In this document: positions 11,526 to 54,434 of the stretch, piece after piece
Layout: every line of letters starts with the position of its first letter
Numbering within the stretch: position 1 is the stretch's first letter
Assembly: GCA_037917675.1 (NCBI GenBank)
Contig: JAVCBW010000005.1
Coordinates: forward strand, 93,887 to 157,886
DNA: 64,000 nt
DNA from: Thermoproteota archaeon
GTDB lineage: Archaea > Korarchaeota > Korarchaeia > B14-G2
Reading direction: 5' to 3'
Made by a program: the position numbers and the translations under genes
The notes under the pieces: model-generated
Seen by the model: only the letters and a program-made list of their open reading frames with translations
The model's database searches: none
Told to the model about the DNA's origin: nothing

Positions 11526-11547
11526 TGTAAGCAAAGTAATAGCTTAG

Positions 11548-11645
11548 CGGGGGTAGCCAAGCCTGGCCAACGGCGGCAGAAGCTGCTGAGACTCAAGATC
11601 TGCTCCCTTAGGGGTTCGTGGGTTCAAATCCCACCCCCCGCACCA
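11548..11645 (+). tRNA. tRNA-Leu (anticodon CAA). It has a type II variable arm and probably an 11-nt intron at a non-canonical position; CCA is encoded.
   Basis: The acceptor is GCGGGGG/CCCCCGC. The D-arm is GCC-AAGCCTGGCCAAC-GGC. The anticodon stem GCAGA/TCTGC encloses 18 nt ending CTCAAGA. The variable arm is TCCCTTAGGGG, the T-arm is GTGGGTTCAAATCCCAC, and the 3' end is ACCA. Confidence 0.7.
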
Positions 11646-16570: not shown

Positions 16571-16584
16571 TTTTTTTGGTGAGT

Positions 16585-17538
16585 ATGCGAGAGCTCATAG
16601 GTGAGATACCTAAGAAGTGCCCATACTGTGGTAGTGATAGGATAGTAATAGATGCAGGTAGTGGAGAAGCTGTCTGTATGGGATGTGGTAGAGTAATAGA
16701 GGAGAACCTCATAGATAGTGGGAAGGAGTGGAGAGAGTTCGATGACGAAGTGAGTGCTGAAAGGGCTAGAGTAGGGCCTTCAACCTCACCTATCAAGGTA
16801 GGCTTTGGTCTAACGACAGAGTTCGACCTGTATAGCAAGGGGGTAAAGCTTCCCCAGGAGATTAGGAAGAAGGCAAGCAAGATAGCTCTCCTCCAATGGA
16901 GGGCGACAAGGGATACTATGCCAAAGAGGTCTGTTAGCGCAGCACTACCACAGCTAAAGAGGGCAGCCTCAGGTCTAGGGCTCTCAGATCACGTGATAGA
17001 GGAGGCAGCCATGATATATAGAAAGGCTTCAGCAGCAGACCTGATTAAGGGCAGAAGCGTGATAGCTACAATGGCAGCAGCAGTGTACATAGCTGTAAGA
17101 CTAAACTATGTCGCGAGAACTCTTGAGGAGGTAGCTAGAGAATTTGGAATCTCAGAGAAAGATCTCGGAAGGAATTTCAGGCTTCTGATCAGAGAGCTAA
17201 ACCTGAAGCTACCACCTCCATCACCAGAGGCCTTCGTAGAGAGGATCTGTGGAGAGCTAAAGCTTCCAGGTGAAGTGGCTGCTAGAGCCCATCAGGTGCT
17301 GAAGAAGGCGAGAGAAGCTGGTATAACAATGGGCAAGGAGCCCTGTGGGATAGCTGCAGCAGCAGTGTACATGGCTTGCCAGGAGACCAATGAGAAGAGA
17401 ACCCAGAGAGAGCTAGCTCAGGCAGCTGGAGTAACAGAGGTAACTGTGAGAAATAGGTTCAAGGAGCTTGTAAACAAGCTTTACCCCGGCAAGGTGATAG
17501 TGGAGGAGGTGGCAGAAAGGAGGAGGGGGAAGGAGTAG
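16585..17538 (+). CDS. tfb: Transcription initiation factor IIB (TFB).
   Basis: An N-terminal Zn ribbon (CPYCGS...CMGCG), a B-finger/linker and two cyclin repeats are present. The C-terminal RTQRELAQAAGVTEVTVRNRFKEL is the HTH of the second cyclin repeat. The ATG at 16585 is preferred over the track's TTG at 16576. Confidence 0.9.
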   Translation: MRELIGEIPKKCPYCGSDRIVIDAGSGEAVCMGCGRVIEENLIDSGKEWREFDDEVSAERARVGPSTSPIKVGFGLTTEFDLYSKGVKLPQEIRKKASKIALLQWRATRDTMPKRSVSAALPQLKRAASGLGLSDHVIEEAAMIYRKASAADLIKGRSVIATMAAAVYIAVRLNYVARTLEEVAREFGISEKDLGRNFRLLIRELNLKLPPPSPEAFVERICGELKLPGEVAARAHQVLKKAREAGITMGKEPCGIAAAAVYMACQETNEKRTQRELAQAAGVTEVTVRNRFKELVNKLYPGKVIVEEVAERRRGKE

Positions 17539-26320: not shown

Positions 26321-28645
26321 ATGGCTATCAAGGGAGCATTTAGGATGCTTAGACCTGAGATCAAGGCTTGGCTTGAAGACTATGGGATATCAGAGCCTAC
26401 CCCTGTTCAGGAGAGGTGCATTCCTCTCGTCCTAAGCGGAGTGAATGTGCTAGTGTCGTCTCCTACAGGCACAGGTAAGACCGAGGCTGCTGTCTTACCT
26501 ATAGCGAGTAAGATGCTGGATGCTAAAGCCAGCAGAGCTATAGCCCTATATGTGACGCCACTTAGAGCTCTCAATAGAGATGTTTTCAGTAGACTTCAGG
26601 CTCTCTTCAGGGTGGTGGGACTTGAGATATCTGTGAGGCATGGAGATACACCTGAGAGTATAAGGAGAAAGCAGGCTGCTAAGCTGCCAGACATGCTTGT
26701 AACCACCCCTGAAACCCTTCAGATAATGTTGGGAGGGAGAAGGCTCAGAGAAGGGCTCTCTGCTGTCAGGTTCGTTGTAGTAGATGAGGTACACCAGCTA
26801 GCGTTCAACAAGAGGGGAGCTCAGCTCTCTGCTGGGCTAGAGAGGCTTAGAGAGCTGGCAGGAGACTTCCAGGTTGTTGGGCTCTCCGCTACGGTAGGTG
26901 CTCTGGACGAGGCTGCTAAGGTCCTGTTTGGCTCTAGAAGCTATGAGATAGTTGACATGGGTGGAGTTAAGAAGTTTGAAGCTGAAGTCATCATGGTGGG
27001 GGAGCTGGGTGAGAGAGAAGTCTGCAAAGCTATAAGCAAAGCCTGTAGAGGAGCTAGGTCAGCTCTAGTGTTCACCAATACCAGAGCTACGGCAGAATAC
27101 ATAGCTTCAGCTATGAGCAGATACAGCTCAGAGAGCGGGGTGCATCATAGCTCACTGTCTAAGGAGATGAGGCTTGCAGCAGAGGAGGGGCTTAGGTCAG
27201 GGAAAGTTAGGCTTCTGGTGTGTACGAGCTCTCTTGAGCTGGGAATAGACATAGGGACTGTAGACATAGTTGTTCAGTACATGTCTCCTAGGCAGGTTAC
27301 TAGGTTCCTGCAGAGGGTAGGTAGGTCTGGGCACAAGCCTACATCGACATCTAGGGGGGTTGTGCTCGCTACAAGCTGGGAAGACGCGCTTGAGGCCTCA
27401 GCTATAATCAGGAGGGCTAAGCTCGGGGAGCTCGATGCAGAATCTCCTCCCGAAGCTCCATTTGATGTCTTATGCCACCAGCTTGCAGGTCTGATCATAG
27501 AGAGAAAGGCTGTGCCATTAGAATATGCTGTCAGAGTTCTCAGGAGATCTCATCTATATAGGGGGCTCAGTGTGAGAGATCTCCTCAAGGTGCTTGGCTA
27601 CATGGCTGAGAGATGGCCTAAGCTGGCTGTTGTAAAGGATGGGGTAGCTAGAAAGCCACCAGATGCAAGTACACTGTACAAGTACTATTTTGACTGTGTC
27701 TCGATGATACCAGATATAAAGACGTTTGAGGCTGTGGACGAAGATGGAAGGAGAATTGGAGTGTTAGATGAGCCTTTTGTACTAGAGTACTGCAGAAAGG
27801 GGAGCAGGGTGGTAATTGGAGGACGTACATGGCGTGTTGTGGAAGTGAGAGGAGATAGGGTTGTCTTGAAGACAGCTAGTGATGAGGGGGGAGTCGTACC
27901 TAGCTGGATAGGAGAGGACCTTCCAGTTTCACTTGAAATAGCTGAAGAAGTCGGGTCCATGAGAGAGAAGGTGGAGAAGGGAGTTAGGTTGGGAAGCGAA
28001 GCTAGCGTGCTTGATGAGCTATCAGAGACCTACCCATTCTGCGACCCTAAGGCATTCAGAGAGTTAGTTAACAGTGTTAGATGGGCGCTGACTAGGGAGA
28101 TGGAGATACCCTCTCCTAACAGAGTTGTCATAGAGGAAGCTGGAGAGTTTACTGTCGTACACAGCTGCTTTGGGACACGCGTAAATAGAGCTCTAGGAGA
28201 CATGCTCAGGTGGATGCTACGTGACTTCAGAGCTGATGTAAGGGTCGTTGTAGACCCATATAGAGTTTATTTAGTTCCAGCTATCCCATGTAAGCTTGTT
28301 GTCGATTCTCTTCAGAGAGCTGATCTGAGTAGCGTAGAGGAGTTGCTGCTTAGCCAACCTGATCTGCCTACTCTTAGGAGGAGACTTGTTAACGTAGCTA
28401 AGAGGTTTGGCGCCATAGACAGGGAGGTAAGTGCTGTCGACTTGCCGCCTATCAGGCTGTTTGACATGTTCTATGGTACGCCAGTTCTTGATGAAGCTAT
28501 CAAGGAGGTTTTACAGATAGACTATGACTTCGAGGGAGTAAAGCAGGTTTTAGATGGCATTAGATCAGGTAGGCTGGAGCAGGCATGCTTCACTTGCCGT
28601 GGTGGAAGCCCCTTTGCTAGGATTGGGATATGGAGAGTCAGCTAG
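26321..28645 (+). CDS. Lhr-like DEAH/DEVH-box helicase (SF2).
   Basis: Motifs present are motif I SSPTGTGKT, motif II VVVDEVHQL, SAT (LSATVG) and motif VI QRVGRSGH, with a winged-helix and extended C-terminal region. Confidence 0.65.
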   Translation: MAIKGAFRMLRPEIKAWLEDYGISEPTPVQERCIPLVLSGVNVLVSSPTGTGKTEAAVLPIASKMLDAKASRAIALYVTPLRALNRDVFSRLQALFRVVGLEISVRHGDTPESIRRKQAAKLPDMLVTTPETLQIMLGGRRLREGLSAVRFVVVDEVHQLAFNKRGAQLSAGLERLRELAGDFQVVGLSATVGALDEAAKVLFGSRSYEIVDMGGVKKFEAEVIMVGELGEREVCKAISKACRGARSALVFTNTRATAEYIASAMSRYSSESGVHHSSLSKEMRLAAEEGLRSGKVRLLVCTSSLELGIDIGTVDIVVQYMSPRQVTRFLQRVGRSGHKPTSTSRGVVLATSWEDALEASAIIRRAKLGELDAESPPEAPFDVLCHQLAGLIIERKAVPLEYAVRVLRRSHLYRGLSVRDLLKVLGYMAERWPKLAVVKDGVARKPPDASTLYKYYFDCVSMIPDIKTFEAVDEDGRRIGVLDEPFVLEYCRKGSRVVIGGRTWRVVEVRGDRVVLKTASDEGGVVPSWIGEDLPVSLEIAEEVGSMREKVEKGVRLGSEASVLDELSETYPFCDPKAFRELVNSVRWALTREMEIPSPNRVVIEEAGEFTVVHSCFGTRVNRALGDMLRWMLRDFRADVRVVVDPYRVYLVPAIPCKLVVDSLQRADLSSVEELLLSQPDLPTLRRRLVNVAKRFGAIDREVSAVDLPPIRLFDMFYGTPVLDEAIKEVLQIDYDFEGVKQVLDGIRSGRLEQACFTCRGGSPFARIGIWRVS

Positions 28646-30126
28646 ACTTCAGGGACTTCTCTGATAGCTTCCTCTATCGCTTTCTTCCTCCTGAGCCTTA
28701 TGGCATATGCAACTATGGCTATGACAACAGCTAACATTGTAGCAAGCATCATGACTGTAGCAGCCTTGATTCCCTCCTCTCCTTCTGGCTGTAGTGTGCT
28801 AGCTGACGGCGGTGATAGCTGTTCTCTAGGAGATGCTGTAGGTGTTAGCTCTGTAGGTGGTGTTATCGTAGGTGTAGGAGAAGGCTTAGGAGAGGGAGCT
28901 ACAGTGAATGTGATAGCTGAACGCATGTAGCCGCTCTTAGACACAGTTAAGTTATGTAAGCCACTTGCCACTGGCATGTAGACTGTGCCCTTGCTGTCAG
29001 TGTAGTATACTATGGTCGTCCCATTGGAGTATCTGGCTACAACCTCAGCTCCTCTGACAGGCTCTCTAGATATGGCGTCAAGCACCTTCACTTTAGCTAT
29101 TCTAGCTGGCTGCAGAGCTACTTCAATCAGCAGCTTTCTGAGCACGCTTATTTCCAGCCAAGTCGTATTGAGGTATTTCCCATCAGCCCGCACTACTACC
29201 TTAACCCTATATGAACCTGGAGGGGGGAGCTCTATCTCTAGAGGGATTTCCTCAGATGTTTCTGCTAGTGGAAGAGCTGTGAAAGCCTTTCTTCCAGATA
29301 CACTAGCCTCTGGGATACTCCATAGGACTTCTATGCCTATGGGAGTAGATAGCTCGTGTGCTACTGTGACTAGCAACTGATAGCCTGTAGTCTTGTTCCT
29401 CAGCTGTACATTAGAGTAGATTTTAGGCTGCACTAGGAACACTCGATGGGTAGCTGTTAGGGTTATGTTGCCAGCGGAAATCTCTAATTGCAGATCATAT
29501 GGGCCAGCACTCCAGTTTGAGGTTACAATCTGGAGCTCAGGAGAATCTATGTCTGTAATGGAGCTTGGAGGCAGTACTGTATCTATTTGAGACGTACGTA
29601 TCAATCTATCACCTGAGAATACTGTCATCTTGATGCTGACAGCTATAGAGCTGTTGATAGTGTTTGCTAGCTTGAAGCTTAGAGGGATCCTTGACCCTAT
29701 AGGGATCTCATATGGCATCGATGAGGGGATCAAAATTATGGGAGGCACTTCAACTCTGAAGTAGTATGTAGCTAGCAGCTGTGATCCTACTCTGACCTCT
29801 AACTTCCATACACCTTGTGAGGAGGAGATTGGAAGCTTATATGTGTACGTGGCTTCTCCTAGAGTCACATAGATGAGGCTCTCATCTACTATAGTCCCAT
29901 TTGGAGCATAGAGAGTAGCTAGTAGAGCTACCCCTGAGACAGCCTCACCCTCCCGGGTTCTAAGGTACATCACACACTGTATGTTTTCTAGTGGATGATA
30001 GGATTCTCTCGTGAACCCACCTGTGATGGTGTACTGTTGTACAGGCGATACCTGTAGTAGTATAGTAGCTAGAGCTAAGATTAGAGCTCTCAGACTTAAT
30101 CACCAAGTCAGTCTGGGAATCAGCAT
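28642..30126 (-). CDS. Cell-surface protein: Ig-like/beta-rich ectodomain, Pro/Thr-rich stalk and C-terminal TM anchor. If the ATG at 30126 is used, the signal peptide contains an in-frame TGA.
   Basis: The C-terminus is ...SPKPSPTPTITPPTELTPTASP...ATVMMLATMLAVVIAIVAYAIRLRRKK. Upstream and in frame, MLIPRLTW-TGA-LSLRALILALATILLQVSPV would form a signal peptide. The track ORF (28642..29973) starts at a GTG after that segment. Confidence 0.45.
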
Positions 30127-32657: not shown

Positions 32658-33836
32658 TTGAGCGAAAGGAGATCTGTCCGTGAGATACTGGTTGAGCTTA
32701 AAGATACAGCATCCTATGTTGTTAGCTTAGCATACGCCTCTCTTCTATCTAGGAATGTAGAGCTTGCTAGAGAAGTCATTGAGCTAGAGAATGAGGTAAG
32801 AGACCTGAGAGACGACTTGCTTGAAGCTATCCTCCTTGCTGCCAGAAGTGCGCGTAGAAGAGAAGAGGTGAGGTCTCTCACCACACTACTAGAGGTAGGG
32901 TATGTTTCCATGCAGATAGCTAACGCAGCTGCAGACATAGCTAAGCTTGCTATGGCAGGAGGCCCTCTGCCTCTCTACCTTGTTAAGGCACTTAAGGAAT
33001 CTGAGATTGTGACTAGCATAGCTACAGTGAGCAGTAGATCTAAGCTTGTAGGCAAGAGGCTAGCTGAGCTCTTTAACCCACCCATCCTAGGTGGGTGTGA
33101 TGTATTAGCTATAAGAAGAGGGAGGACATGGATATTTGACTATGATGCTGACGAGGTTATCGAGGAAGGAGATCAGCTTCTGTTGAAGGGAACAGCAAAG
33201 GGGGTTAGGGAGGCAAGCGCAGCACTTGGAGGAGAAATCGTGGTCCAGGGGCCTCTTGGAATGGTCGATCTACCAGTCATAAGGAACATCTTAAGGAGGA
33301 TGAAAGACATCTCTGAGAGCATGATTGAGCTAGCTTACACAGCTCTGATATATGATAACATCGAGATAGCTAGAGAAGTCATCAAGCTAGAAGAGCAAGT
33401 GGATAGGCTTTACACACAGTTTGAGAGAGAAGTGCTTAAGGTGGCTGGAGCTGACCTGGCAAGCAGCTTACCTCCAGCTCTTAGGGTAGCAATAGCCTCT
33501 GAGGGCATCGCCGATGCAGCAGCAAGCCTAGCTGAGCTTGTTATAGACAGGATAACAGCTCACCCAGTACTTAAAATAGTCTTCAGAGAAGCAGAGGAGA
33601 CTGCTATCCTAACTAGAGTTAGACATGGCTCGTATCTAGATGAGAGAGGGATAGCGGAATCAGGTATTGAAGAAAAGAGCGGGATGAGAATTGTTGCAGT
33701 CAAGAGAGGAGGAAGGTGGATAGTAAACCCGCCAGCTAACTACGTGGTTAAGAGGGGAGATCTGATCGTAGCTGTAGGCATGCCAGAAGGAGCAAGAGTC
33801 CTCCTTAGCATGGTGGAGGGGGATGGGAGCACATAG
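32658..33836 (+). CDS. PhoU-like plus TrkA-C tandem-repeat protein (COG3273-type).
   Basis: It contains two repeats, each a PhoU-like helical segment (VELAREVIELENEVRDLRDDL; IEIAREVIKLEEQVDRLY) followed by a TrkA-C-like beta domain (VGKRLAELF...GDQLLLKG; ...RGDLIVAVG). Confidence 0.5.
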   Translation: MSERRSVREILVELKDTASYVVSLAYASLLSRNVELAREVIELENEVRDLRDDLLEAILLAARSARRREEVRSLTTLLEVGYVSMQIANAAADIAKLAMAGGPLPLYLVKALKESEIVTSIATVSSRSKLVGKRLAELFNPPILGGCDVLAIRRGRTWIFDYDADEVIEEGDQLLLKGTAKGVREASAALGGEIVVQGPLGMVDLPVIRNILRRMKDISESMIELAYTALIYDNIEIAREVIKLEEQVDRLYTQFEREVLKVAGADLASSLPPALRVAIASEGIADAAASLAELVIDRITAHPVLKIVFREAEETAILTRVRHGSYLDERGIAESGIEEKSGMRIVAVKRGGRWIVNPPANYVVKRGDLIVAVGMPEGARVLLSMVEGDGST

Positions 33837-34719
33837 AAGGCCTAACACGCTGTCTTTTGCTGGACTCACAGGATATGAGTATGATAGTATAAGATATGTT
33901 ATAGTACCTGTACCATATGACTCGACTGCCAGCTTCCACCCTGGAGCTAGAGAGGGGCCCTTTAAGGTGCTTAGGGCATCAGAGGAGCTTGAACTATATG
34001 ATCCTAAGCTAGGGGTGACGCCAGCTGAGGCAGGTATAGCAACAGCTAGTGATCTAGAGCTTCCACTTGGTAATCCAGTAGAAGCTATCAGAGCCATAGA
34101 GGACTTATGCTATCAGGTGATAGCTGATCGCTGTATCCCAATACTCATTGGAGGAGAGCACACTATAGCTGTTGGAGGAGCAGCCGCAGCTAAGCGAGCT
34201 TATAGGGAGGTTGCAGCTGTGATCTTTGATGCACATCTAGATCTGAGGGACTCATATCGAGGGAGTAGATACAGCCATGCCTGTACTGCTAGGAGAGTCC
34301 TAGAGCATGCTGATAGGGTTATTATAGTTGGATGTAGAGAGGCTAGCTATGACGAAGCTGAATATGCTAGGGAAGAAGGGAAGGTAGAGGTCATATGGAG
34401 ATGGGACCTCTTAGATGGCATGGAGAAGCTATCTGAGGCCCTAAGTGAGGCTGGTGAAGCTATCTACCTGTCTTTTGACCTAGATGCGCTAGACCCCAGC
34501 GTGCTGCCCTGTGTAGGATGCCCCTCTCCAGATGGGCTCTCATTCAGAGAAGCAGAGCATGCTTTGGCATGCATCCTGAGGAGATGCTATGTGGTCGCTG
34601 CCGATTTCACTGAGCTCTCCTGTATGCTCCCCCATGCAAGCTGTGGTATGACCGTTGCCAAGCTAGTCTATAGGTTTATTGGGATGCTGGAGTCCTATAG
34701 CTCAGCTAAGGGTAGGTGA
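33823..34719 (+). CDS. Arginase-family ureohydrolase (agmatinase-like).
   Basis: Mn-binding motifs are present: GGEHTIAVG, DAHLDLRD and SFDLDALDPS. Confidence 0.75.
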   Translation: MGAHRRPNTLSFAGLTGYEYDSIRYVIVPVPYDSTASFHPGAREGPFKVLRASEELELYDPKLGVTPAEAGIATASDLELPLGNPVEAIRAIEDLCYQVIADRCIPILIGGEHTIAVGGAAAAKRAYREVAAVIFDAHLDLRDSYRGSRYSHACTARRVLEHADRVIIVGCREASYDEAEYAREEGKVEVIWRWDLLDGMEKLSEALSEAGEAIYLSFDLDALDPSVLPCVGCPSPDGLSFREAEHALACILRRCYVVAADFTELSCMLPHASCGMTVAKLVYRFIGMLESYSSAKGR

Positions 34720-35864
34720 AGCTCTTTCAATAGAAGTTTAAGCCCAGACTTTATGTTGCCAGATGCTAATATCACGTGCTTGAGTGGATCATGCAGGAGT
34801 AGGAGCTCTATGGGGCAGGTCACTGATACCACGGCTTGAGCTCTACATAGCTCTGTGAACATCATGTTCGACTGGATCACCTTACCCTCTGCTATAGCTG
34901 CTCCCTCACAGCGAAGAGGCGCTATGATAGTCACCTTACCAAGCCTTATGTCTCCAGTTGGAGAGACACCTAGCTTATGTCTGGCATGGGTCCTCAATAC
35001 AGAGAACTCTAGGCCACCTACTAAGCTTATTGGTATTGTGCAGTGTGAGACCACTAGCTGCCTTTTATCGAAGTCTACAGAGGATATGTGAGGCATCCAA
35101 CATGGCTTCCCCCTCAGGTTAGATGCTATTGAGAAAAGCAAAGATGCTGAAGCCTCCTCTCCACAGCCGAGAGGTATTCCTTCCTCATTCAAGACTGCTA
35201 CTGGAAGGCAGGGAGCTACGCCTAGAGAGCCTATCAGCTCTCTGCTGCATTCGATGTGAGCTCCCAGCTGCAGCTTGGTGCCTAAAAGCTCTCTTAGAGC
35301 AATATATGCCCTAGCAGATTTTACCATTAGATCCCAGCTAGCATCTAGGATACCCATCGCTTGGCTTCTCCACTTTTCCGCCATGTGCTCAGCTTCCTGC
35401 ATGCTAACCTCTTCATAGGCTTCTAGCAGGCTGTCTACTGTGATGTGCTTCACTCTTATACTGGAAGGGAGCTGCTGTCTGCCATAGCCTATCATGTAGA
35501 ATGGATGAGAAAGCTTTTGGATGGATCCAGCAATCCTGAGAAGCGACACTAGCCGCTCCACTGTCCTCCTTCCAACCTTGTCTATGTACCATGGGAAACG
35601 TGCTTGAGGATGCTCTCTGACGAGCTCTATTGCTCGTGTTATGCTGCCTATCCCTCCTATGCTCACTGGTATCACTGGAAGCGTATCTGGAGCATTCTTT
35701 AGTGAAAAGCTGCTCTCACTGAATGCAACTAGGACGTCTACCTCCTCTAGCTTTTCAAAAGAAAATGTGATGAAGGGATCTATCTCCTGAGCTCTAAGCA
35801 TGAGCTCATCAATAGCTGACCTGCAGCTATCTGACTCAGCTATGACACCTACTCTCAGCCTCAA
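34695..35864 (-). CDS. Hypothetical protein (389 aa). It lies directly downstream of, and on the same strand as, the pilin-like gene.
   Basis: No confident motif was found. A sugar-isomerase-like fold is a weak guess only. Confidence 0.3.
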   Translation of the reverse strand: MRLRVGVIAESDSCRSAIDELMLRAQEIDPFITFSFEKLEEVDVLVAFSESSFSLKNAPDTLPVIPVSIGGIGSITRAIELVREHPQARFPWYIDKVGRRTVERLVSLLRIAGSIQKLSHPFYMIGYGRQQLPSSIRVKHITVDSLLEAYEEVSMQEAEHMAEKWRSQAMGILDASWDLMVKSARAYIALRELLGTKLQLGAHIECSRELIGSLGVAPCLPVAVLNEEGIPLGCGEEASASLLFSIASNLRGKPCWMPHISSVDFDKRQLVVSHCTIPISLVGGLEFSVLRTHARHKLGVSPTGDIRLGKVTIIAPLRCEGAAIAEGKVIQSNMMFTELCRAQAVVSVTCPIELLLLHDPLKHVILASGNIKSGLKLLLKELHLPLAEL

Positions 35865-35907
35865 GCCTATCTGTTAGAGCTGTTCCACCACCCTTATTAA
35901 GCAGCTG

Positions 35908-36162
35908 TTACCCACCTGAGAGCCAGCTCCAGATATCTTTCAGCCCACCGGATAGCGTATCCAGCAGCTTCGACCCTGATTCAGACGCTGCCTTCATGAG
36001 GGAGTCTAGGAATGATGCTATCCCCTTGATGGGCTCTACTATCAGTATGAAAAACAGAGCCACAGTTGATGTCAGTAAGAGAGCCTCGCTTACCACTTCG
36101 TTCACACCCCTCTCATCTCTGATGAAATCCTTGATAAGTGAGAAAAATCTTCTAGCCTGCAA
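35908..36162 (-). CDS. Small type-IV-pilin-like protein with a class III signal peptide.
   Basis: A putative prepilin-peptidase cleavage site is IRDERG|VNEVVSEALLLTSTVALFFILIVEP, followed by a roughly 20-aa hydrophobic helix. The predicted mature size is about 65 aa. Confidence 0.45.
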   Translation of the reverse strand: MQARRFFSLIKDFIRDERGVNEVVSEALLLTSTVALFFILIVEPIKGIASFLDSLMKAASESGSKLLDTLSGGLKDIWSWLSGG

Positions 36163-36191
36163 CTCATCCCCATAGTCAGTATAGCCGTGAA

Positions 36192-36234
36192 CAGATTTAT
36201 CCCCCGAACATCTGAATCTCGGATAGTAAATCTG
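36192..36234. promoter_or_regulatory. Inverted repeat (CAGATTTAtcc ... ggaTAGTAAATCTG; 8-bp perfect arms 27 nt apart) in the divergent pilin/ATPase promoter region.
   Basis: Read directly from the sequence between the pilin start (36162, minus) and the ATPase start (36256, plus). Confidence 0.3.
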
Positions 36235-36255
36235 TTTCTGGGTGTGATATAGCTG

Positions 36256-37914
36256 ATGATAGAGCTAGGCATGGAGAGACTGCCTTCAAAAGGTTGCAGC
36301 AGATACGCTAACTGCTTGGCTGTCAAGGCTGCACTGGAAGTATGCCTATACCTTCCACAGCAGACATGCTCTAGTCTAAATGGGTTTAAGGCTGAGCTTC
36401 AGGATGAGAATCAGGCGAGAACCCTAGCTAGGTCAGTGCTAAAATCCATGAGGAACATGGCTAAGGCCCCACCAGACTGCAGAGTGCTGCGTAGCATCCA
36501 CTGTAGGCACGTGATCGGGCGTGTTGTGGAGGGAAGCAAGCTAGCTAATCTAGCCTGTATCTTCTGCAGGCATGCTGAGTCTTGCAGCTTATGTGCCAGC
36601 CTTCTTGAAGTTTGGAGAGCAGTGAATTCGATGAGCTTCCGTATATGGGAGCCTGCGGAGGAGGTGTTGAGGACAGAGGAAGTTGAGTTTACTGAGGTAA
36701 GCTATGTGAGGAGGGGAGGGAGAGTATATGCCTTTTTCCGGGAGAAAGCTCGTAGCATGCTGCAAGCTGAGGCGCTCAGGGCTTGCCTACGCTTTCTCTC
36801 TGAGAGCCCACCTAGCGGGAGAAGCCTAGGTGATGCAATAGAGCTGGGAGTACATGCTATCGGGGAAGCTCTCCGCAAGCTGGCAGGTTATGAGTGGTTT
36901 AGAGAGGTAGCGCTTGAAGCTGTCATGATGCACTTTAGGCTACATGAAATCTATCCGCTAATAGCAAACCCTAGGGTTACAGAGGTCTATGGGACGCTTG
37001 GGCACACACTGTACTTTGACCACATACACCTAGGGAGATGTGATACTAGGGTACAGCTGACAAAGGAGCTTTATGATAGGATCCTTTCTATAGCTGAGCT
37101 AGACCCCTATAGCTGGCTTGACGAGAAAAGCCCCTCACTTAAAACAAGCATTGAAACAAGGTATTTTAAGCTCAGAATAACTGTAGACGGGGCTCCTCTG
37201 GCAGAACCGTCAGTAGACATCAGAAACCTCACTAGCATGCAGCTCATGTCTCTACCAACACTGATTAGCATAGGTAGCATAAGCTATCTTGACGCTGCAA
37301 AGATGCTTAAGTCGCTGGCTTCGGGAGCGAATATCCTTGTAGCTGGGCCTACGGGAAGCGGAAAAACTACACTGTGCAATGCGCTTCTCGTGTTCACAGA
37401 CCCCTCTGCTAGGATAATTAGCATAGAGGGGAGCAGAGAGATAGAAGACATGAGCAGATATGGGAAAAAGCACCACATATATGTGGTCCCTCCAGCTGAA
37501 AGCGGGGATAAAGGTGGGAAGTGGGAGGAGGTCATCAAGCTTCTTCATAGGAACCCAGATGTTGTCTTCCTCGGTGAACTGCAACACCAGATGCATGTAG
37601 ATGCATTCTTTACAGCAGTGGAGAGCGGGTTTCAGGTGATGGCAACAACTCATGCTAGGTCGCTTGAGGAGCTTAGAGAGAAGTGGACTAGATGGAATAG
37701 GCAGTTTGACCCCTATAAAGTGGATGTCGTTGTCACCATGGAGAAGAATGGGGGAGCACGTAGGGTAGCTACAGTCTACCAGAGGAATAGAGCCGACCTT
37801 AAAGGTAGAGAGCGTGTTGTAGAGAAGATGCTTCAGATCCTAAAGAGAGGAGAGCTACCCAACATCGAGTGTGCTAGAGCAGTAAGACAAGCCTACTATG
37901 GGGATGACGGTTGA
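36256..37914 (+). CDS. Type IV pilus / archaeal secretion ATPase (FlaI/PilB/VirB11 family) with a roughly 150-aa Cys-rich N-terminal extension.
   Basis: Walker A is ILVAGPTGSGKTTLCNALL. An Asp-box-like PDVVFLGELQ and a His-box-like VMATTHA are present. The N-terminal FlaI-like domain contains ...TRYFKLRITVDG. The first 150 aa carry about 14 Cys (CSRYANC...CRVLRSIHCRH...CIFCRHAESCSLC). Confidence 0.7.
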   Translation: MIELGMERLPSKGCSRYANCLAVKAALEVCLYLPQQTCSSLNGFKAELQDENQARTLARSVLKSMRNMAKAPPDCRVLRSIHCRHVIGRVVEGSKLANLACIFCRHAESCSLCASLLEVWRAVNSMSFRIWEPAEEVLRTEEVEFTEVSYVRRGGRVYAFFREKARSMLQAEALRACLRFLSESPPSGRSLGDAIELGVHAIGEALRKLAGYEWFREVALEAVMMHFRLHEIYPLIANPRVTEVYGTLGHTLYFDHIHLGRCDTRVQLTKELYDRILSIAELDPYSWLDEKSPSLKTSIETRYFKLRITVDGAPLAEPSVDIRNLTSMQLMSLPTLISIGSISYLDAAKMLKSLASGANILVAGPTGSGKTTLCNALLVFTDPSARIISIEGSREIEDMSRYGKKHHIYVVPPAESGDKGGKWEEVIKLLHRNPDVVFLGELQHQMHVDAFFTAVESGFQVMATTHARSLEELREKWTRWNRQFDPYKVDVVVTMEKNGGARRVATVYQRNRADLKGRERVVEKMLQILKRGELPNIECARAVRQAYYGDDG

Positions 37915-38525
37915 GAAAGGTGGATGCTCTATTCCTCGTGCTGCTCACGGCAACAGCAGCTACTGTACCAGCTCTCTCAGCAGCTATACTTGCTACTAGG
38001 CTTCTCCTTGTAGCTCTTGAGAGGGCTGCGTCTAAGAGGGTAGAGTTATCCTATCTGACGTCAGCATACGCCTTCGCATTCACCTACCTAACTGGGCTAG
38101 AGAGAGGAGTACCTTCAGCACTAAACGCAGTGTTAGCTCTTGGTATAGAGCCATATGCAGCTGATCTCAGGAAGCTGAAGGCTGAAGCTCTGAGGGGTAG
38201 GCCTCTACAGGAGCTAGTTTCAGAGTATGCTGAAAGAGTCCCTGTACTCCCATCTAGGATAGCAGTGCTCTCTTCACTAGGCAAGCAGGAGAAGCTAGGC
38301 TACATAAGAGAGCTTGTAGCCATAGAGGTGAGTGAGAAGATATCTGCCTACCTTAGTGCAGCATCACTTGCTGTAGTAGGAAACTACCTCCTACTCCTCA
38401 TGCTGCTGATGCTCCTTGCGCTTGGAAGAGTTAGTGGCAGCCACATGCTGGTAGCAGCCATATCAGCCTTCACTATGGAGGTAGGTGTACTTGAGTACTG
38501 GAGCAGGACCGAGGCTGAGGAGTAG
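37911..38525 (+). CDS. TadC/FlaJ-like membrane platform protein, first half (one T2SS-F-like repeat).
   Basis: It has a TM segment, a cytoplasmic helical domain and TM segments. It overlaps the ATPase stop; the start may be the GTG at 37920. Confidence 0.45.
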   Translation: MRKVDALFLVLLTATAATVPALSAAILATRLLLVALERAASKRVELSYLTSAYAFAFTYLTGLERGVPSALNAVLALGIEPYAADLRKLKAEALRGRPLQELVSEYAERVPVLPSRIAVLSSLGKQEKLGYIRELVAIEVSEKISAYLSAASLAVVGNYLLLLMLLMLLALGRVSGSHMLVAAISAFTMEVGVLEYWSRTEAEE

Positions 38526-39150
38526 GAGGTTCATATGGGAGACTCCAGATGTAGACGAGATCCTTGGGTTAGCAGAGATCATAGAGAGGACAGCATCACA
38601 TATGGGAAAGTGTAGAAGCCTGTATGCTGCTCTGGTAGAGGGGTGCAGAGAGTATAGAGGGTATATGAAGGAGCTGGTTCAGGAGGCAGCCAGAAGAGCT
38701 AGCTCAGGAGAGTATACGGTGGAGGAGCTTGCGGCAAAGTTGGAGGAGACATTTCCTACGAGAGGGAAGATCCTCAGGCTCCTCCTCCTAAGCAGAGTAG
38801 ATTTAGAAGAGCTAAGCAGGAACATCAGAGAGCTCCACATGATGTTGCTTAGTGAGGCTGTGATCGCTAGGAAACTAGCATCTTCTCTTAGAGAGATGCA
38901 TAGGAGAGCGCTTCTCCTGCTATCTCTCCTGACAGCCTCATCTATAGGGCTTCTCAGAGTTAGGGATGTACTGGCAGGAGCCAGCGTGCTCAGAGCCGCC
39001 CAAAGTACACCTTGGTATGCTCTAGCAGCTGTCATGGGGGTTAATATTGTAGTTCTGTCAAGGCTCTGCCAGCTTAGCATAGTTAGGTCTCTGCTAGCTA
39101 CAGTCTTGGGGGCACTCTTGGGGTACCTCCTCTTTTGGGTGGTATTCTGA
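38485..39150 (+). CDS. TadC/FlaJ-like membrane platform protein, second half.
   Basis: A cytoplasmic helical domain is followed by three C-terminal TM segments. It overlaps the previous ORF by 41 nt in another frame. Confidence 0.45.
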   Translation: MYLSTGAGPRLRSRRFIWETPDVDEILGLAEIIERTASHMGKCRSLYAALVEGCREYRGYMKELVQEAARRASSGEYTVEELAAKLEETFPTRGKILRLLLLSRVDLEELSRNIRELHMMLLSEAVIARKLASSLREMHRRALLLLSLLTASSIGLLRVRDVLAGASVLRAAQSTPWYALAAVMGVNIVVLSRLCQLSIVRSLLATVLGALLGYLLFWVVF

Positions 39151-39647
39151 ACATGCTGCTAGCTTTAGGCTGCATTCCAATAGCATGCTCTATAGTAACA
39201 GACTTGATCTATGGTAAGGTGTATAACGCGGCCATAGCTGCTGAGCTAGCGATACTAGCAGCACTATCATACACTAGTGGCAGCTGTAGGGGCTTCGCAT
39301 ACCTGCTAGCTACAATCCCACCTTCACTAGCGTTGTTCTCAGCTGGGCTTGGTGGAGGAGACTGTAAGCTGCTAATGACTACATCAGCCCTCATATCCAC
39401 CATAAACCTGAAGGCTGGAGCATACATGTACGTGTACTTTCTAGCCCTACTTCATCCAGCCTGGTATCTACGTGAAGGAAAAGTGAAGGGCATTGTGTCA
39501 GCGATGCTAGCTTCTCTGCCAGCTCCCAAAATAGCCCCATACACGTGGCTAATGCTTGCTGCATCCTCCTCATTTAGCAAAAGAGGGGTGCTAGCTACTC
39601 CACTTATTATGCTAGCTTATACTATGGCAGCTAGCTATGTAGTCTGA
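39135..39647 (+). CDS. Prepilin/preflagellin peptidase (A24 family, PibD/FlaK-like), short form.
   Basis: It is polytopic, with the first Asp in TM1 (IVTDLIYGK) and a conserved LGGGDCKLLM motif. Confidence 0.65.
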   Translation: MGGILNMLLALGCIPIACSIVTDLIYGKVYNAAIAAELAILAALSYTSGSCRGFAYLLATIPPSLALFSAGLGGGDCKLLMTTSALISTINLKAGAYMYVYFLALLHPAWYLREGKVKGIVSAMLASLPAPKIAPYTWLMLAASSSFSKRGVLATPLIMLAYTMAASYVV

Positions 39648-43722: not shown

Positions 43723-44826
43723 GTGGAAGGTGAGAGGGCTATTTTCGAGTACAGGGGCTTCAACGAGATATACTACGAGAGCGGAGGAGGCATAGACGAG
43801 CTATATGAAAAGGGGTATGTTGAGAAGCTTCCAAGTGGAGAGTATGTGATGCCATCAGTAGCAGCAGTCCACTTGCTTGAGCAAGGTAAGGTGGTGATAA
43901 GGGAGGAGGGGAGAGAGGTTACAGCACTGGAGGTCTTAGAAGATGCTGTGAAAGCTAGCCCAGACAATATACTAAGGTACTTCGTCTTTAAGGATCTCAG
44001 AACAAAGGGGAGGCTAGCTAAAGTTGAACTTAACACCCCGTTCATAAGGCTATACCCAAGAGGAGGGAGAGTAGGAGAAACACCAGCAACCACGCTGATC
44101 TACTGCATATCAGAGGATAAGCCCATAAGGCAGAGCGAAATACTGGAGAAGATAAAGTATGCTCAGCTAGCTAGGAAAAGCCTCATATTTGCAGTAATCG
44201 ATGACGAGATGAACATAAGCTACTATGCTGCAGAGGAGTTCGAGCCAAAGAAGATACGTGAAGTAGACTTATCCTTTCCTGAAGCTGATGGCATAGTCAT
44301 GCATGACAGAGTCATAGTATGGGACCATGAAGTTGGGAATGCCATATATAAGGCAGGTTTCTGGGGGCACTTTATAGGGGTAGCTAAGCCGAGGCATGAC
44401 CAGTACTATGAGAAGCCACTCCAGCTCTCCCTGACCGAGGCATGCTATCTAGCTGAGAAGAAGAAGATAAAGCTATATAGGGTAGGGACACATAGCCTAG
44501 TGAGCACCAAAGAGATAGCTGAGCTTCATGCTAAAAGCAGGGTTAAGGGAGCAGAGAAGATAGTAGCATACACATACTGGAGGGATAGGGGATACGTAGT
44601 TAAGCCAGCGTCAAAGTATGGGGTGGACTTCATGTTCTATGAGCTTGGGCCGGGAATAGACCATGGGCCCTATATGTGCCTCGTCTCAACCCCTGATGAA
44701 ATGATACTCCCAGTTGAGCTTATCAGAGCAGGGCGTATAGCGACTTCAGTGAGAAAAACCTTTGTTGTGACCGTAGTTGATGGGAGTAGAGTAGTTAACT
44801 ATAAGTTCAGCTGGAGGAAGCTTTAA
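43723..44826 (+). CDS. endA: tRNA-splicing endonuclease, long two-repeat form (degenerate N-terminal unit plus catalytic C-terminal unit).
   Basis: The C-terminal unit is SLTEACYLAEKK...AYTYWRDRGYVVKPASKYGVDFMFYELGPGIDHGPYMCLV, with catalytic Tyr/His/Lys as in the archaeal EndA active site. The N-terminal unit is YFVFKDLRTKGRLAKV...LIFAVIDDEMNISYY. The start is GTG. Confidence 0.7.
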   Translation: MEGERAIFEYRGFNEIYYESGGGIDELYEKGYVEKLPSGEYVMPSVAAVHLLEQGKVVIREEGREVTALEVLEDAVKASPDNILRYFVFKDLRTKGRLAKVELNTPFIRLYPRGGRVGETPATTLIYCISEDKPIRQSEILEKIKYAQLARKSLIFAVIDDEMNISYYAAEEFEPKKIREVDLSFPEADGIVMHDRVIVWDHEVGNAIYKAGFWGHFIGVAKPRHDQYYEKPLQLSLTEACYLAEKKKIKLYRVGTHSLVSTKEIAELHAKSRVKGAEKIVAYTYWRDRGYVVKPASKYGVDFMFYELGPGIDHGPYMCLVSTPDEMILPVELIRAGRIATSVRKTFVVTVVDGSRVVNYKFSWRKL

Positions 44827-52967: not shown

Positions 52968-54377
52968 TTGGACAGCATCCTGAAGCTCATATCAAGTGAG
53001 GTGACACCGAAACCAGAGGAAAGAGAGGCTTTAGAGAGGGCTGTATCAGAAATCACGAGGAAGCTGCAGGATATCAGAGACAGATATGGGTGGAGATATG
53101 AAGTAATGCATCTGGGGTCGACAGCAAGAGACACATGGCTTTCTGGGAGCAGAGACATAGACATCTTTCTAGCATTTCCCTTAGATGAAGGCGAGAGTGC
53201 AATGGAGGAGATAGGTGTTAGAGCTGGGATAGAGGTGTCAGGTGGAAGATATAAGCTGCTTTACTCAAGCCACCCATATGTCAGAGTGGAGCATAGAGGC
53301 TTTGAGATAGACATTGTACCATGCTATAGGATAACAGATGTATCTCAGCTTAGGAGCGCAGTCGATAGGACACAGCTGCACCAGAAGTATCTGGAGGAGA
53401 AGCTGACTCCAGAGCTATGCAGTGACATAAGGCTGATGAAAGCCTTTGCTAGGGGGGTTGGGGTATATGGAGCTGAAGCTAAGACTAGAGGCTTCTCAGG
53501 ATATCTACTAGAGCTCATAGTCCTCTACTATGGGAGCTTCCTTGAAGCGATCAAGGAGGCATCAATGTGGAAGCCTCCTATAGTAATCGACATAGAGGGG
53601 TATTATGCTCCGAGAGAAGCTAGAGAGGTCTTTGACTCCCCTATTATAGTCGTGGACCCAGTGGATAGGAGAAGGAATGCTGCTGCATCAGTGAGCAAGC
53701 AGGCACTATCAGCCTTCATAGCAGCCTCCTCGCTCTTCCTAGCAAGGCCCAGCATTGCCTTCTTCAAGCCACCACAGAAAAAGCTACCTGACAAGGTCGA
53801 AAGCCACTTTGCAATAGTGGCTTTCAAGCTGACTAGGGCTCCACCAGATGTCCAGTGGAGCCAGCTTGAGAAGACATGTAACAAGGTCAGAGCATACCTG
53901 GAGGAGCAGGGAGCTCAGGTATTGGGGGCTAGCTTCTGGACAGATGAAGATATCAGAGGTGCTTTAGCATTTAAGTTCGCTAGCTGGCAGATACCAGAAG
54001 CTAGAGTGCACTATGGGCCATTTGTCTGGCAGAAGGAAGAGAGCTTGAAGTTCATAGACAAGCATCTTAGGAGAGAGGATACGATTGAAGGCCCTTTCAT
54101 ACAGGACTTCAGGTGGGTTGTGGTGAAGAGAAGAGAGAGAAGTGTGCTGAGCATTTTGAGGAGCCTTGTATCTAGTATGAGCATCATGGTGTCAATTGGG
54201 GTACCTGCAAGGATAGCTGAGTGCATAGAGAGGGAGCACATGGTCTTAACTGAAAGGGATATAGCAGCCATAAGGGGCACAGAGCTAGAAGAGTTCCTGT
54301 CGGAGCTACTGGATAGAACTCCTCAGTACGTCAAGTGGGGCCGGCGGGACTTGAACCCGCGACCTCCAGCGGTCTAG
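52968..54377 (+). CDS. cca: CCA-adding tRNA nucleotidyltransferase, archaeal class I.
   Basis: Supporting features are GSTARDTWLSGSRDIDIFLAFP (Pol-beta NT motif) and the typical length. The last 14 codons run antisense through the neighbouring tRNA gene. Confidence 0.8.
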   Translation: MDSILKLISSEVTPKPEEREALERAVSEITRKLQDIRDRYGWRYEVMHLGSTARDTWLSGSRDIDIFLAFPLDEGESAMEEIGVRAGIEVSGGRYKLLYSSHPYVRVEHRGFEIDIVPCYRITDVSQLRSAVDRTQLHQKYLEEKLTPELCSDIRLMKAFARGVGVYGAEAKTRGFSGYLLELIVLYYGSFLEAIKEASMWKPPIVIDIEGYYAPREAREVFDSPIIVVDPVDRRRNAAASVSKQALSAFIAASSLFLARPSIAFFKPPQKKLPDKVESHFAIVAFKLTRAPPDVQWSQLEKTCNKVRAYLEEQGAQVLGASFWTDEDIRGALAFKFASWQIPEARVHYGPFVWQKEESLKFIDKHLRREDTIEGPFIQDFRWVVVKRRERSVLSILRSLVSSMSIMVSIGVPARIAECIEREHMVLTERDIAAIRGTELEEFLSELLDRTPQYVKWGRRDLNPRPPAV

Positions 54378-54434
54378 CAGAGGCCCCAGGCTCACGCCTG
54401 TGTTGGCGCCCTAGCCAAGCTGGGCCACGGCCCC
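54336..54434 (-). tRNA. tRNA, 99 nt, containing an intron or introns. The isotype is unresolved; a CUGCUAG loop would give Ser-GCU.
   Basis: The acceptor is GGGGCCG/CGGCCCC. The D-arm is GCCC-AGCTTGGCTA-GGGC. The T-arm is GCGGG-TTCAAGT-CCCGC. The discriminator is A. About 24 nt of excess sequence lie in the anticodon region. Confidence 0.6.

Follow-up and report, generated by a model that had tools for sequence, protein, structure and literature searches.

A likely minimal Tad/Epd-like type IV pilus locus with a two-gene platform and a cysteine-rich assembly ATPase in a Korarchaeota-affiliated archaeon

Do six neighbouring open reading frames (ORFs) on contig JAVCBW010000005.1 of a Korarchaeota-affiliated archaeon encode a pilus, even though public records label their orthologues 'hypothetical protein [Candidatus Korarchaeota archaeon]'? 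The ORFs lie in a stretch of 64 kilobases (kb; the window, that is, the whole of the DNA analysed here; G+C about 49%). The initial annotation had proposed that they hold a self-contained archaeal type IV filament module with a prepilin, an assembly ATPase, a platform and an A24 prepilin peptidase. All six were found where it had placed them, and identification of the components bears the module out: five of the genes form a compact type IV filament module made up of an 84-amino-acid (aa) prepilin, a T2SSE ATPase, two small platform proteins and a short A24 peptidase (Table 1). Judged from its genes and their relatives, the locus is likely to encode a type IV pilus system of the Tad/Epd-like kind, minimal and highly diverged, in an uncultured Korarchaeota-affiliated archaeon.

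Table 1. Positions in the window of the putative pilus genes, the adjoining gene and the elements discussed (Cys, cysteine; nt, nucleotides; TM, transmembrane segment).
Feature	Coordinates	Strand	Basis or remark
Flp-like class III prepilin, 84 aa	35908..36162	-	Leader, helix, motif family
T2SSE-family (FlaI/GspE/CpaF-type) assembly ATPase, 552 aa	36256..37914	+	Pfam T2SSE, motifs, conserved start
Lineage-specific Cys-rich N-terminal region, ATPase aa 1-150	36256..36705	+	10 Cys
Putative platform protein 1, 204 aa: TM, helical cytoplasmic domain of ~110 aa, 2 TM	37911..38525	+	Orthology
Putative platform protein 2, 219 aa: helical cytoplasmic domain of ~115 aa, then 3 TM	38491..39150	+	Fold, orthology
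Short A24 aspartyl prepilin peptidase, 164 aa (170 aa from 39135), TadV/EppA size	39153..39647	+	Asp motifs, orthology
Perfect 10-bp inverted repeat, AACAGATTTA / TAAATCTGTT	36190..36236		Within 93-nt divergent intergenic region
AraA/FucI/SftI-like sugar-isomerase-like protein, 389 aa	34695..35864	-	43 nt downstream of the pilin gene

The same six genes occur in the same order and orientation in two further assemblies of the same organism (L001, L002), and the synteny is also identical in L003-L005, from a relative whose ATPase is 70% identical. Comparison of the window with the orthologous locus L003 gave ratios of non-synonymous to synonymous substitution (dN/dS) of 0.13-0.34, with dS at about 0.9-1.4, close to saturation; the short pilin gene, in which dS was saturated, yielded no ratio. 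This purifying selection marks the six as real genes, not chance ORFs. The four machinery genes (ATPase, platform 1, platform 2 and peptidase) are tightly packed, with two overlaps (4 and 35 nt) and one 2-nt gap between them, and are predicted to form one tightly coupled operon that diverges from the pilin gene.

Residues 295-470 of the ATPase match Pfam T2SSE (PF00437) above the gathering threshold (E 4.4e-17; 62.2 bits against a cut-off of 24.9). The motifs by which it had been recognised are in place, namely a Walker A GPTGSGKTT from aa 364, an Asp box IEGSREIED at aa 390 and a His box ATTHA at aa 463. A Walker B DVVFLGEL starts at aa 435 in the numbering of the 552-aa protein, and all four motifs are invariant across an 18-member alignment of the ATPase family. 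The family profile A1 retrieved FlaI (4II7, 1.4e-21), AfGspE (2OAP, 1.8e-21), VirB11 (1e-14) and CpaF (4.7e-13) from the PDB. A search of 5.8 billion proteins with the ATPase gave at least 159 bits for members of the family and at most 51 bits for everything else, and within archaeal secretion ATPases the family appears to form a deeply diverged clade. Its hosts, going by record labels, are Thermoproteota/Korarchaeota, Heimdall/Asgard and Marsarchaeota metagenome-assembled genomes (MAGs). The nearest relatives of the window ATPase, at 44-45% identity, are those of the Korarchaeota-type loci L088-L091. The public gene call starts at the second ATG (36271; 547 aa). In an alignment with the L003 orthologue the first ATG, at 36256, falls exactly on the start codon there, within a conserved TATAGCTGATGA block, and the 552-aa reading is therefore preferable. 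This ATG sits about 25 nt downstream of a TAAAT element, and its conservation together with that element suggests a leaderless product of 552 aa.

The prepilin has a basic leader of 19 aa ending in DERG. The RG/V cleavage site and helix described in the initial annotation were confirmed as DERG/VNEVVSEALLL followed by one hydrophobic helix (aa 23-41), after which comes a short amphipathic tail. It is the sole ORF of the window to pass a [KR][GA]+hydrophobic filter, and is 82% identical to its L003 orthologue. Homologues adjoin the ATPase family in at least six lineages (L007, L021, L016, L019, L088 and L090), with phmmer values of 3.5e-15 for L088 and 1.1e-13 for L090. The family motif is D-x-R-[GA]-(V)-x-x-[LIV]-[LIV]-x-E-[AG]-[LI]-L; in Heimdall prepilins the sequence is RA/SPLIEEGILIG, which puts Glu at +5 and +6 and Gly at +7. 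The L088 orthologue matches Pfam Flp_Fap weakly (E 0.05). The pilins at L088:4698-4988 and L090:4698-4991 have sequon-rich tails (NAT/NST and NTT/NVT, respectively), which suggests N-glycosylation; the window pilin ends in WSWLSGG, without a sequon.

GGGDCKLL, noted earlier in the peptidase, is present in the 164/170-aa ORF. The protein itself reaches 15.9 bits against Pfam Peptidase_A24 (PF01478; E 0.018; threshold 26.5), and its 127-aa orthologue in L088 (4.7e-11) passes the same threshold with 32.8 bits (9.8e-8). The catalytic Asp motifs D17-x3-GK-x2-N and GGGD70-x-K are invariant in the window, L003 and L007. Both Asp motifs and the orthologue above threshold place the window protein among the predicted A24 peptidases.

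Both platform proteins have almost no homologues, and their identification runs through the sister loci. In the Korarchaeota-type loci L088-L091 the pilin gene is followed by those for the ATPase, a 167/171-aa protein and a 187/188-aa protein and then, in L088/L089 only, by one for an A24 peptidase. The 204-aa protein matches the first of these small proteins by phmmer (4.8e-7 to the 167-aa protein of L090, 1.9e-3 to the 171-aa protein of L088), and the 219-aa protein matches the second (3.6e-4). Against Pfam T2SSF the L088 171-aa protein gave E 6.1e-5 and 23.4 bits (cut-off 25.2) over profile positions 15-118 of 125, and the single-gene platforms of other family members have weak T2SSF matches in two different halves. 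The 204-aa protein has a dN/dS of 0.22 against L003 and a predicted topology that fits a T2SSF platform; it is thus identified, indirectly, as a putative platform 1, TadB/TadC-like and with a single T2SSF-like domain. Fold and orthology give adequate grounds for taking the 219-aa protein as the probable second half of a two-gene platform. Bacterial loci from a genome scan, being TrbB conjugation loci, could not serve as TadB/TadC references. Against the PDB, sequence and profile searches with the platform proteins, the peptidase and the 389-aa protein returned nothing or noise.

Several results weigh against a Tad/Epd-like pilus. The ATPase is about equidistant from the FlaI, TadA and VirB11 models and below every equivalog cut-off, so 'Tad-like' describes an architecture and not a demonstrated phylogeny; it scored 52.8 bits against a cut-off of 550 for the archaellum ATPase FlaI/ArlI (NF058587) and 50.8 bits against 373 for TadA/CpaF (TIGR03819). 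Among the criteria of Denise et al. 2019, two platform genes and a short pilin are present, and a TadZ/FlaH-type second ATPase was not found in the window. Neither the 204-aa nor the 219-aa protein has a direct Pfam T2SSF (PF00482) match, and paralogy of the two was not significant by hhalign (E 0.024). Local hhalign comparisons of the platform halves, also with the single-gene and Heimdall platforms, were co-linear and non-significant (E 0.02-0.5). The window prepilin has no Pfam pilin match, and in its clade Glu stands at +3 and +7 and not at the canonical +5 (Flp: G/xxxxEY). Finally, the filament, the processing of the pilin and the ATPase activity are predictions from the genes.

A mechanism can be proposed by analogy with Tad, Epd and FlaI systems. 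The 84-aa prepilin would insert into the membrane, and the short A24 aspartyl peptidase would cut after Gly19, removing the 19-residue basic leader. A hexameric T2SSE ATPase would dock on a platform of two single-domain T2SSF-like proteins, the equivalents of TadB and TadC, and ATP hydrolysis would lift pilins of about 65 residues, almost purely helical, from the membrane into a thin Flp-like filament. The filament would most likely serve in surface or cell-cell adhesion.

Which of the known systems does this arrangement resemble? With Tad (Flp) and Methanococcus Epd-like pili (PMC6668835) it has in common two adjacent putative platform genes, each with a single T2SSF-like domain, directly after the ATPase, a very short, almost purely helical pilin with a G/A-1 cleavage motif, and a short A24 peptidase without a methyltransferase domain. 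Tad and Epd-like systems are recognisable by a pair of single-T2SSF platform genes (Denise et al. 2019, PMC6668835). Unlike Tad loci, that of the window has no secretin and no minor pilins, its components fall below family thresholds, and its ATPase stands at least as far from CpaF/TadA as from FlaI or VirB11. The Korarchaeota-type sister loci carry a ParA/CbiA-like gene in the TadZ position: L088:2168-3475(+) and L090:2213-3475(+) encode P-loop proteins of 420-435 aa with weak CbiA/ParA matches, placed as TadZ/FleN would be, and have no counterpart in the window.

The host lineage, a fast-evolving ATPase and TadC-like proteins are shared with the clade-4 type IV pilus-like systems of TACK archaea (PMC4858521). 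The Cys-rich N-terminus of the window ATPase recalls those described for subclades 4F and 4D, and its two platform genes recall 4B; two TadC genes are recorded for archaeal clade 4B and for a Methanococcus system (PMC4858521). The Korarchaeum cryptofilum locus (arCOG01818 and arCOG01811) holds a PKD protein, a 2-TM protein, an ATPase and TadC (PMC4858521), which is the layout of family members L008-L012, with a single TadC gene. The tree of Makarova et al. places the single K. cryptofilum ATPase (arCOG01818) on a long branch as the sister of subclade 4D (PMC4858521). Subclade 4D corresponds to arCOG05558 (PAE2119-like) and 4F to arCOG01818 (MA1299-like), and the link from the window to these groups is an indirect one, by way of the published tree and the shared layouts. 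The archaellum ATPase FlaI/ArlI is the best solved-structure match of the ATPase core (4II7), and with FlaI/ArlI and FlaJ/ArlJ the locus shares the logic of an ATPase plus a polytopic platform; it differs in having a split platform and a pilin of 84 aa, and no archaellins, FlaH, FlaF, FlaG, FlaX or FlaCDE were found at the locus. By architecture and function, then, the locus appears to be a Tad/Epd-like minimal pilus, and by lineage it appears to belong with the fast-evolving clade-4 TACK systems. The two-gene platform and the Cys-rich N-terminus are both genuine, and both have published precedents.

The N-terminus of the ATPase had been described as an extension of about 150 aa with about 14 Cys, of a kind not associated with known pilus ATPases. 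The region is there, with 10 Cys in the first 150 residues; 14 is the number in the whole 552-aa protein. The extra length is likewise real, and relative to the nearest relatives (466-475 aa) it comes to just about 85 aa, consisting of an insertion of about 50 residues and an N-terminal addition within an N-region common to all family members, in which the Pro of a PP motif is invariant. The Cys are at positions 14, 20, 30, 38, 75, 83, 101, 104, 110 and 113, giving the spacing C-x5-C-x9-C-x7-C ... C-x7-C-x17-C-x2-C-x5-C-x2-C. The Cys-rich region is missing from the other 16 members of the 18-member alignment. ATG 36256 and conservation at the protein level show it to be part of the ATPase ORF and not a separate upstream ORF. 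Against the L003 orthologue it is about 51% identical, with nine Cys invariant and the tenth shifted by 1-2 residues; the proportion of non-synonymous differences (pN 0.31) is below that of synonymous ones (pS 0.60), and the second codon position is the least variable. The Cys-rich N-terminus thus appears to be translated, conserved and under constraint.

A HMMER profile of the region run against 1.84 billion representative proteins retrieved its own cluster and one spurious repeat protein, with no homologue outside the cluster; the repeat protein, P0070, was rejected, its score being summed over four weak copies. A derivation from the neighbouring TFIIB-like genes of related loci was also rejected, there being no similarity. 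The absence of precedent does not stand: variable Cys-rich domains have been described at the N-termini of archaeal pilus ATPases in subclades 4F and 4D (Makarova, Koonin & Albers 2016, PMC4858521), and 4D ATPases have a small N-terminal domain with conserved Cys that was read as disulfide-forming (PMC4858521).

What the ten Cys do is where the closest alternative arises. The region might have a regulatory function, as a metal or redox sensor by which the pilus motor is gated, for example through an O2- or NO-labile [4Fe-4S] cluster. The Cys are conserved at only 51% identity, the relatives come from MAGs of anoxic hydrothermal sediment, and part of the pattern, C83-x17-C101-x2-C104-x5-C110, resembles the spacing of the [4Fe-4S] ligands of WhiB1 (C9, C37, C40 and C46; PMC6282962). 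However, that resemblance is the sole link: the C-xn-C-x2-C-x5-C spacing of WhiB-like (Wbl) [4Fe-4S] proteins is present, the Wbl signature G[V/I]WGG is absent, and no Pfam or hidden Markov model (HMM) similarity to them was found. Pfam and HMM scans of the region gave no homology to any known sensor domain, and an AlphaFold2 (AF2) model built from two sequences (mean confidence, pLDDT, 43.8; helices only) was too poor to interpret. The comparable regions discussed by Makarova et al. were, as noted, taken to form disulfides.

The tetracysteine sites of bacterial GspE/PilB are structural zinc sites, which also speaks against a sensor, and to our knowledge a Cys-rich N-terminus is not known in TadA/CpaF. 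Structural metal binding or stabilising disulfides are the most likely role of the region as predicted from its sequence; regulation by way of an iron-sulfur cluster or redox state would be possible but lacks support, and we consider a sensor unlikely. The more specific proposal, in which the ten-Cys module binds an iron-sulfur cluster and oxygen or redox state thereby acts directly on the pilus motor of an anaerobic Korarchaeon, is quite unlikely. If true, it would be the first redox-gated type IV filament ATPase, and the recurrent Cys-rich N-termini of archaeal clade-4 ATPases would be sensory domains and not disulfide staples.

Might the machine not be a pilus at all? Subclade 4D is pilin-less and TFIIB-linked, and a non-pilus role has been suggested for it (PMC4858521). 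On that model the window locus would be a repurposed ATPase-plus-membrane-protein machine, for instance one linked to secretion or transcription, as Makarova et al. speculated for 4D. The sister position of the Korarchaeum ATPase to 4D, a subclade with a TFIIB homologue and no pilins at its loci (PMC4858521), favours this, as do the extreme divergence of all components and the TFIIB-like genes that adjoin the ATPase family in Korarchaeota-type and Heimdall-type loci. These paralogues (Pfam TFIIB repeat and/or zinc ribbon) are, in the Korarchaeota-type loci, at L088:7746-8579(-) and L090:7614-8420(-), and, in the Heimdall/Asgard ones, at L013:3589-4638(+), L016:4609-5667(+) and L017:8173-9240(-). 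In contrast to 4D loci, that of the window has a prepilin-like gene and an A24 peptidase gene beside the ATPase and platform, with no obvious role outside pilin processing. Nor is a TFIIB-like gene adjacent in the window. The only such ORF there, 16576-17538 (+), lies about 20 kb away, matches a TFIIB-like protein of a Heimdall locus (phmmer 3.2e-6) and is probably a general TFB. The TFIIB-linked Korarchaeota-type loci themselves have prepilins, plus an A24 peptidase in L088/L089, and two of three Heimdall-type loci (L016, L017) have pilin-like ORFs. The presence of TFIIB-like genes beside pilin-bearing loci suggests a dedicated transcription factor of the pilus operon instead. We regard a non-pilus machine as very unlikely here.

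That the predicted pilus takes up DNA is highly improbable. The one point in favour of a competence pilus is that DNA uptake is known, in general, from some type IV filaments; the annotated neighbourhood of about 17 kb holds no ComEC, DprA or nuclease-type genes, and the characterised short-pilin Tad and Epd systems mediate adhesion (PMC6668835).

The platform of the putative pilus had been flagged as a possible frameshift. Its first ORF begins at a TTG that overlaps the ATPase stop by 4 nt, and the second overlaps the first by 41 nt if read from GTG 38485 (221 aa) or by 35 nt from TTG 38491 (219 aa). The start TTG 38491 is conserved, as is a GGAGGT Shine-Dalgarno motif lying 9 nt ahead of it, whereas GTG 38485 is not; the real overlap is therefore 35 nt. 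The two ORFs and their overlap are identical in L003-L005 and retained in a third lineage, L087, with dS saturated. The frame offset between them is +1 in the clade of the window and -1 in L088 and L090, and in L016 the two genes are separated by a 5-nt gap, so that neither a sequencing error nor a conserved programmed frameshift can account for the split; the latter was rejected on the variation in offset between clades. Two-gene platforms are found in the window, L088, L090, L013, L016, L017 and L019, and single-gene platforms of about 300-313 aa with two weak T2SSF-like halves in L006, L008-L012 and L092. The platform of this ATPase family thus appears to record a fission or fusion event. 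The frameshift suspicion is overturned by this conserved organisation in three lineages and the different offsets in sister clades. Hence, for all that the ORFs overlap by 35-41 nt in different frames and several relatives have one platform protein, a single gene broken by sequencing error, recent frameshift or programmed ribosomal frameshift has next to no chance of being right, given the same split in independent assemblies of three lineages (L001/L002, L003-L005, L087; dS >1), purifying selection on both halves, a conserved Shine-Dalgarno motif and start of the second gene, and splits with offset -1 or without overlap in other clades.

The intergenic region between the prepilin and machinery genes contains the inverted repeat that had been given as 8 bp long; the repeat is real, and its arms are 10 nt and perfect. 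They occupy 36190-36199 (AACAGATTTA) and 36227-36236 (TAAATCTGTT), 27 nt apart, and each reads TAAATCTG toward the adjacent gene, about 25-32 nt upstream of its start codon. A 9-mer of the repeat occurs four times in the window against 0.47 expected, and its core GATTTA/TAAATC and a nested CCGA..TCGG are conserved in L003. The arms are likely to be two mirror-image TATA/B recognition elements of divergent, possibly leaderless promoters; alternatively, the repeat may be a palindromic operator. A scan for sigma-70 promoters and terminators found nothing above background, the bacterial model not being meaningful for an archaeon.

The sixth gene, co-oriented with the prepilin gene, encodes the 389-aa protein. 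It had been called unknown, and a Pfam scan of the window protein itself indeed gave nothing usable, but it can be assigned as distantly isomerase-like. The NCBIfam sulfoquinovose isomerase model matches all three known members of its family, far below the equivalog cut-off (best 3.2e-16; window protein 2.4e-6). A distant homologue, P0073, has weak matches to Pfam Fucose_iso_C (1.4e-4) and AraA_central (1.7e-3), and the genes around it, Asp23 and Dak2/FakA, are unrelated to pili. Neither a TM segment nor a signal peptide was convincingly predicted in the 389-aa protein, and outside the window organism and L003-L005 the gene is absent from all other loci with this ATPase family. Its earlier inclusion in the pilus system does not agree with these results: the gene probably just lies next to those of the pilus, and to give its product a part in glycosylating the pilin would be entirely speculative. 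An agmatinase/arginase-family gene (33823-34719, +) is convergent with the 389-aa gene, and their 3' ends overlap by 25 nt (34695-34719), as they also do in L003.

Elsewhere in the window, a gene at 28642-29973 (-), about 5 kb upstream of the locus, encodes a 443-aa protein with weak MG2 and CarboxypepD_reg-like matches. Large secreted Ig/PKD-rich proteins comparable to it are encoded immediately upstream of the ATPase in L010, L012 and K. cryptofilum. Two tRNA genes of 96-99 nt, at 11547-11642 (+) and 54336-54434 (-), were matched by Rfam and missed by ARAGORN; their length is consistent with intron-containing archaeal tRNAs, and a gene for a tRNA-intron endonuclease is present at 43723-44826.

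The Tad/Epd-like pilus proposed here overturns nothing in current understanding. It gives a function to five genes publicly listed as 'hypothetical protein' in Korarchaeota MAGs, and shows a very diverged family of ATPases, from TACK and Asgard archaea, to be accompanied by Flp-like pilins, A24 peptidases and two-gene (or fused) platforms. The Cys-rich N-terminus of the ATPase offers a small, tractable target for the role of recurrent archaeal Cys-rich additions. The family may help to re-read the enigmatic pilin-less subclade 4D of Makarova et al., and, as bacterial Tad pili are believed to descend from the Tad/Epd-like architecture that its layout represents, it may also help to reconstruct the transfer of these systems from archaea to bacteria.

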